Source: Escherichia phage vB_EcoM_G10400. Taken from it: a stretch of 64,000 nt of DNA. This document shows positions 1-41,767 of this stretch, one piece after another. Below the pieces are notes generated by a model that did no database searches, had not been told where the DNA came from, and saw only the letters and a program-made list of their open reading frames with translations. The position numbers and the translations under genes are program-made. The stretch lies in sequence record MK327937.1; one strand, 5' to 3'. Numbering within the stretch: position 1 is the stretch's first letter; each line of letters opens with the position of its first letter.

Positions 1-442
1 TTCATAATACGCATGACGAGCAGGTGCAGATTTAATTTTGTTCTGAATAACTTCCATTGCGTTATCAGAAAGAGACAAAACCCATGCTCGACGAATTTTA
101 TTTTGGTTTTGTGGATTTGATTCAGAACGCACGTGTTTTGGCTGAATATCTTTTACATCAACAGTATAATTCACAGTAATTTTAGTCATAATACACCTTT
201 AGTCATAATAATCAGTAACAGTCCAAGCTTCATTTCTATTGGACATTATTTTTGTATATTCTGCTTTAAATGCATTCCTAAGCATAGATTCAGTAACTAT
301 ATGCTCTTCATTAGAAAAATTATTTCTCAGAATATATCGTTTTATTTCAGGAAAAGTTAATAAATGCTGTCCAGTTGAATATTCCATGTTTTTCCTCCAT
401 AGAGATTATACTCTAATAAATTAAAGCATAATCTCTTATAAA

Positions 443-18150: not shown

Positions 18151-18205
18151 AATAATCTCAATTAAAAGGGCTTAAAACCATTATACCATCCTTGGTATAA
18201 AGCAG

Positions 18206-25567: not shown

Positions 25568-25753
25568 TCATAAGGAATTTATATAATTAATAAGTTCTTG
25601 TTCTTTATTATCGAATTCTTTAGAAAGTTCTTCGTACTCGTTTGCACTAAAAGGACCGCATTCATTACAAACTTTTTCCAATTCACTATTTTTATCCATA
25701 ACTTCATGGATAAGAGAAAAGAGTTTGTCTTTTTGTTCTTTGCTTAGGCTCAT
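25568..25753 (-). CDS. Hypothetical protein
   Basis: 61 aa ORF. Confidence 0.35.
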   Translation of the reverse strand: MSLSKEQKDKLFSLIHEVMDKNSELEKVCNECGPFSANEYEELSKEFDNKEQELINYINSL

Positions 25754-25919
25754 ATATTAATTTCCAGAAGTTTTAAAATAATTCGCTTTTGCTTAAATAT
25801 TTCCATAGTTAAATGATCAGTATCTTTTTGACCAATTCCAATAGCAAAACCTTTATTAGCAGCGAGTTCAATTAAATTATCAAGTTCACGTGACACTTCA
25901 TATTGTAACTCAAAACTAT

Positions 25920-26147
25920 TCATTTCGGTTTACCTTCTTTAACGAAATCTGGATAAGGATAAAACCCCGAATAAAATCCTTCACCTTTATGATTGATGCA
26001 TCCTTTATTAGAACAATAGCACCAATAATCGAAATCACAAACCATTTCATCGTTGCATAAAGCAAAAACAACCGGCCATTTACACTTTTCACAGTGGGCA
26101 TTTTTAAGAATGCTAGTTTGGCTCATAACCATGTAACCTTTAAGCAA
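25920..26147 (-). CDS. Cys-rich small protein
   Basis: 75 aa with multiple CxxC-like pairs; preferred over the overlapping 25916-26101 frame. Confidence 0.4.
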   Translation of the reverse strand: MLKGYMVMSQTSILKNAHCEKCKWPVVFALCNDEMVCDFDYWCYCSNKGCINHKGEGFYSGFYPYPDFVKEGKPK

Positions 26148-26350
26148 TATTCTTCTACATGCTGTTTACGACCTTTCTTATCAATAAAGGTATATTCAAC
26201 GAATGTTCCAATATAGTCTTTATCTACATCATGTGGACTATTAATTGGGCATTTAGTACGGCAAATGCGTTCCCATTGACGAATAATTACTGCCTTATTC
26301 TTTGGGTCATATGGATGTGGATAATGTATATTCATAATAACGGTTCCCAA
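26123..26350 (-). CDS. Hypothetical protein
   Basis: 75 aa ORF. Confidence 0.4.
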   Translation of the reverse strand: MGTVIMNIHYPHPYDPKNKAVIIRQWERICRTKCPINSPHDVDKDYIGTFVEYTFIDKKGRKQHVEEYCLKVTWL

Positions 26351-26799
26351 TCAACAATCACAATTTCTAATTTAGAGGAATATGTATCTAAAATCCCCTC
26401 AATAATATCCCAGTTCCCTTTACCTATGCCTGCACCAATCCTAGGCATATAGATTGTAGGTTTAATCAGTTTATTTTCACCAAACTCATTTAATTCTAAC
26501 ATACAATTCATTAAAGCGGAATACTCAAAATTTGGCCCTGGTTGAAATTGAGTATAAAGGTTGAAGCAATACGCTTTATGAGTCCTAAAGTATTTTTCAT
26601 AGACTGAGTAAGAACCGAGTTTAGTTACATCACCCCATTCAGTCTGTAATTTATCAGCTTCCAAAATTTTAGGGAAAGCTTTGGTTAATTGACCCGCTAC
26701 GCCTGAACCCATAGTATGAAAACAATTGCATCCATGCGCAATATTTTTACCTTCAGCGAAAAGGGCGACAATATCGCCCTTGATATATTTTACAATCAT
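26332..26799 (-). CDS. Macro-domain protein (predicted ADP-ribose binding/hydrolase)
   Basis: 155 aa; motifs characteristic of macro domains (…AHGCNCFHTMGSGVAGQL… and …PRIGAGIGKG…). Confidence 0.65.
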   Translation of the reverse strand: MIVKYIKGDIVALFAEGKNIAHGCNCFHTMGSGVAGQLTKAFPKILEADKLQTEWGDVTKLGSYSVYEKYFRTHKAYCFNLYTQFQPGPNFEYSALMNCMLELNEFGENKLIKPTIYMPRIGAGIGKGNWDIIEGILDTYSSKLEIVIVDWEPLL

Positions 26800-27137
26800 C
26801 TAGTACTCAATCCTCGATTATAAGAATCTACCAAACGGTCAACCATTGAATGACAAGCGGCTTTATCTTTCTCCTCCGCAACTGAACATTCTAAGGTATT
26901 CCACTTTTTAGCATATCGTTTTAATAATGTATCGTTTTTGTATCTGCTTGATTTATCTCTTTCTCCGTCTTTATATGCATATATTAATTTCTGTGCAAAT
27001 TCAGCTTGGCATGCTTTATTTTTCCCACAATAATCCGCTGCAGTACGGTTTACATACTCTCTAATTTCAGTATATGATGTATCTGCTAACGCAGAAAATG
27101 AAATTAATCCTATACATAAAACCAAAATTTTAGTCAT
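26796..27137 (-). CDS. Secreted Cys-containing protein
   Basis: 113 aa with signal-peptide-like N-terminus (MTKILVLCIGLISFSALA) and four Cys; at the position of T4 vs by synteny (uncertain). Confidence 0.5.
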   Translation of the reverse strand: MTKILVLCIGLISFSALADTSYTEIREYVNRTAADYCGKNKACQAEFAQKLIYAYKDGERDKSSRYKNDTLLKRYAKKWNTLECSVAEEKDKAACHSMVDRLVDSYNRGLSTR

Positions 27138-28164: not shown

Positions 28165-28210
28165 TAGAAAAATTATACCACAGTCAAGAGGAAAAGTAAA
28201 CAGTTATTCT
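28165..28210 (-). promoter_or_regulatory. T4-type early promoter (regB)
   Basis: -35 GTTTAC (plus 28196-28201), -10 block aattatacca (28171-28180). Confidence 0.6.
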
Positions 28211-31822: not shown

Positions 31823-32278
31823 TTAAAAGAGGTTGTTCATTATTCGGTAAAGTGAAGGACCCATCACATATTGCCACTGAGTACGAGGAATAAGAGCAAA
31901 AGCGTCCATCTCTGGAATCATAACGCCATCTTTATTTTCAAAATAAGACTCGCAGCGGCAATTTCTAAACATCTCATGCTCTACTGGAATCATATAATAA
32001 AACAACTGTAGGTCTTTATTACTAGAATATTTAAATACACCTAGGTCTTCTAGAAGGTCTGGATTATAATTGCTAAAACCGGTCTCTTCTAAACATTCTC
32101 TTCGTGCTGCATCTAATGCGCTTAAATCAGAATTTTCTACACGGCCCTTTGGAATATCCCAACGATGTGCCATCATTCCAGGCTTACGAGAACCAGTAAC
32201 CCGACCCATAAATAAATCTTTATCTTCTGTCATAAAAATAATACCAGCTGATAATGTTTTCATTTTAATTTCCTGCAT
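31823..32278 (-). CDS. nudE: Nudix hydrolase
   Basis: 151 aa; Nudix box (…GRVENSDLSALDAARRECLEETGF…). Confidence 0.85.
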   Translation of the reverse strand: MQEIKMKTLSAGIIFMTEDKDLFMGRVTGSRKPGMMAHRWDIPKGRVENSDLSALDAARRECLEETGFSNYNPDLLEDLGVFKYSSNKDLQLFYYMIPVEHEMFRNCRCESYFENKDGVMIPEMDAFALIPRTQWQYVMGPSLYRIMNNLF

Positions 32279-41718: not shown

Positions 41719-41767
41719 GTGTTTCTCCTCAAATTTAATTAAGATTATAACACACAAAACTGAAGCA

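Follow-up and report, generated by a model that had tools for sequence, protein, structure and literature searches.

The closest described counterpart of the gene considered here is tk.4 of bacteriophage T4, whose orthologues matched the A1pp (macro) domain already in 2006 (PMC1524935). Many GenBank records of its homologues read 'macro domain protein', and the label given in PHROG 335 and RefSeq is 'phosphatase', which is probably misleading for Tk.4. Recently, the HIDEN-SEQ analysis of a T4 transposon library on a DarTG2 host gave one significant hit, tk.4, and a clean tk.4 knockout sensitised T4 to DarTG2; the gene was renamed adfM, for 'anti-DarT factor Macrodomain', and removal of ADP-ribose from DNA by T4 AdfM was proposed in the words 'seems likely' (bioRxiv 10.1101/2025.11.20.689424, November 2025, not peer-reviewed). 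A biochemical assay of Tk.4 itself was not found in the literature searched, and the CmdTAC paper makes no mention of phage macro domains. The name AdfM was given independently to gp104 of phage PhiKZ, which removes ADP-ribose from DarT2-modified DNA in vitro (Cell Rep 2026, PMC13309987). Among the cellular enzymes, SCO6735 from Streptomyces coelicolor removes ADP-ribose from thymidines in DNA with high efficiency and gives cells protection against DarT; its activity is lysine-independent, is abolished by Q85A or Q85E and almost abolished by N27S, Asn27 being the residue that holds Gln85, and on DNA it is almost abolished by K34E (PMC9411070). Proteins carrying Glu/Asp-linked ADP-ribose are likewise substrates of both SCO6735 and human TARG1, which remove the modification (PMC9411070), and TARG1 is described as reversing DarT-type DNA ADP-ribosylation as well (PMC8501950).

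The stretch of DNA analysed here (the window; 64,000 nucleotides of Escherichia phage vB_EcoM_G10400, MK327937.1) carries this gene at 26332..26799 on the minus strand, with an ATG start, 155 codons for amino acids and a single macro domain; it is the longest ORF within these limits and has the same orientation as all its neighbours. The product has 100% amino-acid identity with T4 Tk.4 (X04567 ORF 60.5; T4 assembly OZ209057; UniProt P13309), the two genes differing by 6 synonymous and 0 non-synonymous substitutions, and the annotation of the ORF in RB32 is likewise tk.4. The gene order regB-vs.1-vs-tk.4-tk.3-tk is common to the window, RB32 and T4, with vs as the upstream neighbour of tk.4 and tk.3 as the downstream one. 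The start of tk.4 overlaps the stop of vs in an ATGA at 26796..26799 (minus strand), its stop overlaps the start of tk.3 in another ATGA at 26332..26335 (minus strand), and a Shine-Dalgarno-like GAGGA (26811..26815, minus strand) lies 11 nt upstream of the ATG, within the 3' end of vs. In megablast searches the region is 95-99% identical to 465 records of T4-like phages (Tequatrovirus). The window phage is not T4 itself, since its DNA is about 97% identical to that of T4 and, as in RB32, it has an insertion of about 370 bp between tk.2 and tk.3. This additional stretch (25755..26121), missing in T4 and found in RB32-type phages, has two small ORFs of 57 and 75 aa (25750..25923 and 25920..26147, respectively, both on the minus strand); the 75-aa product has many Cys residues (CEKC ... 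C ... C ... C) and is a possible zinc-binding protein.

The product of tk.4 is a macro-domain protein. The first-pass annotation had made this assignment for the 155-aa ORF from two signature strings, AHGCNCFHTMGSGVAGQL and PRIGAGIGKG, both of which are found in the ORF, at residues 21-38 and 119-128, respectively, and the assignment is borne out, well beyond chance, by a Pfam profile, an AlphaFold2 model and Foldseek, with matches to the macro families in the profile and structure searches that it had suggested (PF01661; TARG1, Poa1p, BT1257 and DarG). The match to Pfam Macro PF01661 (E=2.9e-6, 27.7 bits; gathering cut-off 22 bits) extends over profile positions 2-113 of 118 (112/118 covered), and PHROG 335 matches the product with E=1.3e-65. 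Against PDB sequences, phmmer placed BT1257 first (1.3e-9), followed by Poa1p, SCO6735, DarG and TARG1. The AlphaFold2 model, built with 69 homologues as input, has a mean pLDDT of 96.2 and a pTM of 0.91; its six strands and five helices agree with the three-layer alpha/beta/alpha architecture and six-stranded sheet of macro domains. Foldseek against the PDB returned TARG1 (1.4e-9) and then Poa1p, BT1257 and DarG (about 2e-7 to 4e-7), with a probability of 1.00 and TM values of 0.7-0.8; viral MacroD-type domains rank much lower than these. The fold matches of TARG1 and DarG type place Tk.4 in the macro class formed by TARG1, DarG and SCO6735 and named ALC1-like in the SCO6735 paper (PMC9411070), Poa1p and BT1257 being structural matches that are equally close. 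In HMM searches with Tk.4, DarG-like and SCO6735-like profiles, tk.4 is the sole macro domain of the 64-kb window.

Both Gly-rich loops, whose absence would have told against the assignment according to the first-pass annotation, are present and have aligned counterparts in TARG1, DarG and SCO6735. Residues 21-38 (26686..26739, minus strand) contain, according to the SCO6735 and DarG alignments, an H22-G-C-N25-C motif and Gly-rich loop 1 (GSGVAG, residues 31-36), and residues 119-128 (26416..26445, minus strand) form the Gly-rich, diphosphate-binding loop 2 (IGAGIGKG, residues 121-128), with PRIGCGLDRL in TARG1, PPLGVGNGGL in DarG and PRIGCGLAGG in SCO6735 as its counterparts. The remaining motif, NLYTQ (residues 80-84; 26548..26562, minus strand), ends in Q84, which in the alignments to TARG1, BT1257, DarG and SCO6735 falls in the column that holds the catalytic Lys in DarG and TARG1 and Q85 in SCO6735. 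Among 69 phage and metagenome homologues spanning 35-98% identity, G23, N25, G33, A35, D49, Y82, Q84, P119, I121, G122 and G124 are invariant, and Q84 is kept in 69/69 of them as well as in 80/80 bacterial homologues, the best of at least 505. In the hhalign comparison with a DarG set (M. tuberculosis, T. aquaticus, Thermosipho and PhiKZ gp104; probability 98.8), the Lys of the invariant FPTK (DarG K80) pairs with Q84 and the conserved Asn of DarG with N25, and in the TARG1 profile alignment the catalytic K84 pairs with Q84 and D125 with G126. Because Q84 aligns there, Tk.4 lacks the defining catalytic Lys of DarG and TARG1. The DarG-like affinity contemplated in the first-pass annotation therefore stands at the level of the class, and gives way at the catalytic residue, where Lys is replaced by an invariant Gln, as in SCO6735.

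The alignment of the Tk.4 family with SCO6735/BT1257 (hhalign probability 99.0, E=4.7e-18, about 22% identity) pairs H22 with H24, N25 with N27, Q84 with Q85, G122 with G126 and G124 with G128 of SCO6735, whose sequence was obtained via BT1257, to which it is closely related (E=1e-53), and whose numbering was matched to that in PMC9411070. A reading of Q84 as the mark of an inactive, binding-only macro domain was rejected in view of the invariance of this Gln and of the activity of SCO6735, which has Gln in that position. The DNA-positioning lysines of SCO6735 are absent from Tk.4 in the hhalign alignment: K34 pairs with S32, in a column that is Ala in 64/80 of the bacterial homologues, and no Lys pairs with K89. 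As judged from these alignments, the active site of Tk.4 is Gln-type and SCO6735-like, not DarG-type, which, together with the use of the name AdfM for a different protein in PhiKZ, is a modest addition to what is known about the gene. A further residue, D49 (26653..26655), is Asp in all 69 phage and metagenome and all 80 bacterial homologues; it is aligned with Tyr51 of SCO6735, and DarG has no acidic residue there.

The early expression proposed for the gene agrees with its T4 record, in which tk.4 is classed as early RNA and middle protein (PMC9697503 supplements), and with an early-type promoter upstream of regB. This T4-type consensus promoter, likely that of the unit (GTTTACT, 17 nt, TGGTATAAT; 28201..28172, minus strand; from the scan and the sequence), scores 10/12 with an extended -10 in the sigma-70 scan, and the genes downstream of it, regB, vs.1, vs, tk.4 and tk.3, form a tightly spaced run in a single orientation, with no minus-strand terminators predicted between 28172..28201 and tk.4. 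The sigma-70 promoter/terminator scan of 24.5-30.5 kb gave 25 sites versus 24.1 expected in shuffles, which is not above background, and the promoter assignment consequently rests on position and on the T4 expression data. No middle promoter is assigned to tk.4, since the MotA-box pattern has no minus-strand match in 18.7-32.6 kb, an interval that covers about 5.8 kb upstream of the gene. Over the whole window, the same pattern (TGCTTNA-N10-14-TANNNT) occurs 17 times, mostly on the minus strand, versus 8.1 expected, a number reached in 0/100 shuffles; examples such as 403..428, 18180..18204 and 41742..41767, none of them near tk.4, fit T4-type middle promoters. Within the 5' end of tk.4, in antisense, there is a terminator-like hairpin (26761..26781, plus strand) with an 8-bp stem, 5 G-C pairs and a following T-run, and the mRNA of tk.4 would be able to form this stem too, over codons 7-13. 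Such a hairpin might terminate antisense or late-strand transcription or influence translation, or the match may be fortuitous.

The reading that we consider probable is that tk.4 encodes an early-made, single-domain and lysine-independent macro ADP-ribosyl glycohydrolase with which the phage withstands host DarTG2. The gene would be transcribed from leftward-strand early promoters and translated in coupling with vs and tk.3; at infection, host DarT2 would ADP-ribosylate thymidines in single-stranded phage DNA and block replication. The two Gly-rich loops of Tk.4 would then bind the ADP-ribose, with the distal ribose positioned by N25 and Q84, and the ribose-thymine bond would be hydrolysed in a water-mediated, lysine-independent manner like that of SCO6735, restoring the base and releasing free ADP-ribose. 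The anti-DarTG2 role itself derives from T4 genetics with an identical protein, so that, among the roles suggested in the first-pass annotation, the reversal of a DNA-acting host defence is the one directly supported, the T4 protein being needed on DarTG2 hosts according to the preprint. We infer the hydrolytic chemistry from the homology to SCO6735 and from the invariant active-site set, and enzymatic protection, thymidine-linked ADP-ribose on DNA as the substrate and the part played by Q84 are deduced in the same manner. The absence from Tk.4 of K34 and K89, the DNA-positioning lysines of SCO6735, speaks against this glycohydrolase reading.

A gene for a Nudix hydrolase, nudE (31823..32278, minus strand), lies about 5 kb upstream of tk.4 in the same leftward gene series. 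The T4 NudE hydrolyses ADP-ribose, and the enzyme could, speculatively, dispose of the product of the macro domain. The gene and its role in T4 have already been described, and the observation and its interpretation in the first-pass annotation, correct as they are, are not new.

A consistency check for the anti-DarTG2 role is provided by phage T5, which is reported to be DarTG2-sensitive (bioRxiv 10.1101/2025.11.20.689424). No macro domain was detected in the whole T5 genome by a six-frame search with the Tk.4, DarG-like and SCO6735-like HMMs, in which the best match, of 9.1 bits, was an unannotated ORF antisense to T5.047; the tk.4 of the window was found by all three HMMs. In the same genome, the RefSeq label of T5.105 is 'Sir2', whereas the N-terminal sequence FLDIDGVLN resembles a HAD-type phosphatase motif, and the label may be wrong.

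The distribution of the family bears on how widely this role may be drawn. Homologues of tk.4 are encoded in 2,750/50,697 phage records, in the Straboviridae and several other large-phage groups, and a survey of viral NAD/ADP-ribose systems reported that 41% of myoviruses have macro domains (PMC9503650). The bacterial relatives, at least 505 in a scan of one genome per species, belong to many phyla and are mostly single-domain proteins of about 150 aa; in the best 80 of them Q84, D49, N80 and Y82, which were outside the search patterns of the scan, are invariant. Clustering of the genes flanking these 80 by BLAST alone gave no recurring toxin partner, the neighbour families being present at no more than 7/80 loci and lineage-restricted. 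The single-domain architecture and the lack of a recurring neighbour indicate that the bacterial homologues are stand-alone genes and not toxin-antitoxin modules, and, with no conserved DarT-like neighbour found beside them, the ancestral substrate of the family may be a different one, which counts against the glycohydrolase reading. These data also allow the view, tentative and rather doubtful at present, that the Tk.4 clade (HGCNC ... D49 ... NLYTQ) is a distinct lysine-independent eraser whose substrate range extends beyond DarT2-modified thymidine or lies elsewhere. It is based on the wide occurrence of the clade, which extends to thousands of phages and to many phyla of bacteria and has no toxin partner beside it, on the lack of the SCO6735 DNA-positioning lysines and on the clade's own invariant Asp49; the substrates might then include other nucleic-acid or protein adducts of ADP-ribose. 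If it were true, T4 AdfM would be a general counter to ADP-ribosylating defences, not a DarG mimic.

The glycohydrolase reading, directed against DarTG2, is nevertheless better supported than each of three further explanations, the first of which concerns the need for hydrolysis. Catalytically dead SCO6735, DarG and TARG1 inhibit DarT by interaction; in vitro this was observed for SCO6735 Q85A, DarG K80A and TARG1 K84A, with SCO6735 being the strongest (PMC9411070), which means that protection by Tk.4 need not be purely enzymatic. The T4 genetics, moreover, leave binding and catalysis unseparated, and Tk.4 could accordingly act mainly in stoichiometric amounts, either as a ligand that inhibits DarT2 or as a shield for the DNA that DarT2 targets, with hydrolysis being dispensable. 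We nonetheless take this to be unlikely, since nothing in the single domain of 155 aa that makes up Tk.4 corresponds to the C-terminal DarT-binding domain of DarG, and the strict invariance of N25, Q84, G122 and G124, even where there is no DarT partner, points to catalysis.

The 'phosphatase' label in the databases suggests instead an enzyme that, like Poa1p, acts primarily on small molecules, either as a phosphatase of ADP-ribose-1''-phosphate or as a deacetylase of O-acetyl-ADP-ribose, and for which the DarTG2 phenotype would be secondary. The H-x-C-N-C motif common to Tk.4 and yeast Poa1p, the presence of Poa1p structures among the best fold matches (TM about 0.8) and the stand-alone nature of the bacterial homologues, which have no toxin partner, are in agreement with such a function. 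However, Poa1p has Ser at the invariant Q84 column and F152 in the place of G126, and T4 is not known to encode a Tpt1/KptA enzyme that could generate ADP-ribose-1''-phosphate. In addition, the sole recorded phenotype of Tk.4 is DarTG2-specific (bioRxiv 10.1101/2025.11.20.689424), and SCO6735, the Gln-type relative, acts on DNA and protein adducts (PMC9411070). A Poa1p-type activity as the primary function is, on balance, very unlikely.

As for the modifying enzymes of T4 itself, Alt, ModA and ModB modify arginine, a linkage that macro domains of this class are not known to cleave. That Tk.4 erases protein or RNA ADP-ribosylation set by these enzymes or by host defences, with DarT2 reversal as one of several activities, is therefore highly improbable, because, even if the removal of protein Glu/Asp-linked ADP-ribose by SCO6735 and TARG1 (PMC9411070) and a number of phage records and bacterial relatives exceeding what DarTG2 pressure alone easily explains speak for it, tk.4 was a hit for DarTG2 only among the T4 screens described (bioRxiv 10.1101/2025.11.20.689424), and nothing supports the editing of the phage's own Alt/ModA/ModB programme, an option raised in the first-pass annotation.

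With the anti-DarTG2 glycohydrolase as the preferred reading, tk.4 is a worked example of a phage that erases a DNA modification written by its host, of relevance for phage host range and for the choice of therapeutic phages against DarTG2-carrying strains. Among the known systems, SCO6735 (PDB 5e3b) and BT1257 from Bacteroides (2fg1/2afc), the latter being the best PDB sequence match, have the His, Asn, Gln and Gly-x-Gly set in common with Tk.4, whereas the family of Tk.4 is set apart as a separate clade by its own motifs HGCNC and NLYTQ and by the invariant D49. Human TARG1/OARD1 (4j5r) and yeast Poa1p (6lfq) are the top structural matches; the K84/D125 catalytic dyad of TARG1 is not found in Tk.4, which has Q84 and G126 in its place, and Poa1p, a small-molecule phosphatase, differs at the Q84 column despite the common H-x-C-N-C motif, the residues of its PDB mutant structures corresponding to H22 (H23), G126 (F152) and, by alignment offset, T29 (S30) of Tk.4.

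The macro domain of DarG (T. aquaticus 5m31, M. tuberculosis 5m3i) resembles Tk.4 in fold, class and target system, DarT2, but DarG has the FPTK catalytic Lys, a C-terminal DarT-binding domain and an adjacent darT, all three of which are lacking in Tk.4. The NCBIfam DarG equivalog NF048014 gives 30.3 bits on Tk.4 versus a cut-off of 250, and the PADLOC DarG model gives 252 bits for M. tuberculosis DarG, 133 for PhiKZ gp104, 66 for TARG1, 36 for Tk.4 and 34.5 for SCO6735. The possibility that Tk.4 is an orphan DarG was rejected on the grounds of the catalytic Lys, the domain architecture and these model scores. PhiKZ gp104 and Tk.4 are both phage-encoded, stand-alone macro domains acting against DarTG2; gp104 has the FPTK lysine and matches M. 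tuberculosis DarG with E=9e-25, and BLASTP aligns only 23 of its residues with Tk.4. In terms of sequence, the name AdfM covers two remotely related macro subfamilies, a Gln-type one in T4 and a DarG-like, Lys-type one in PhiKZ. Since the two proteins differ in the catalytic residue (Gln versus Lys), the mutant design and inhibitor logic of DarG K80A are not transferable to Tk.4, and the split between the two subfamilies matters for both annotation and the design of experiments.
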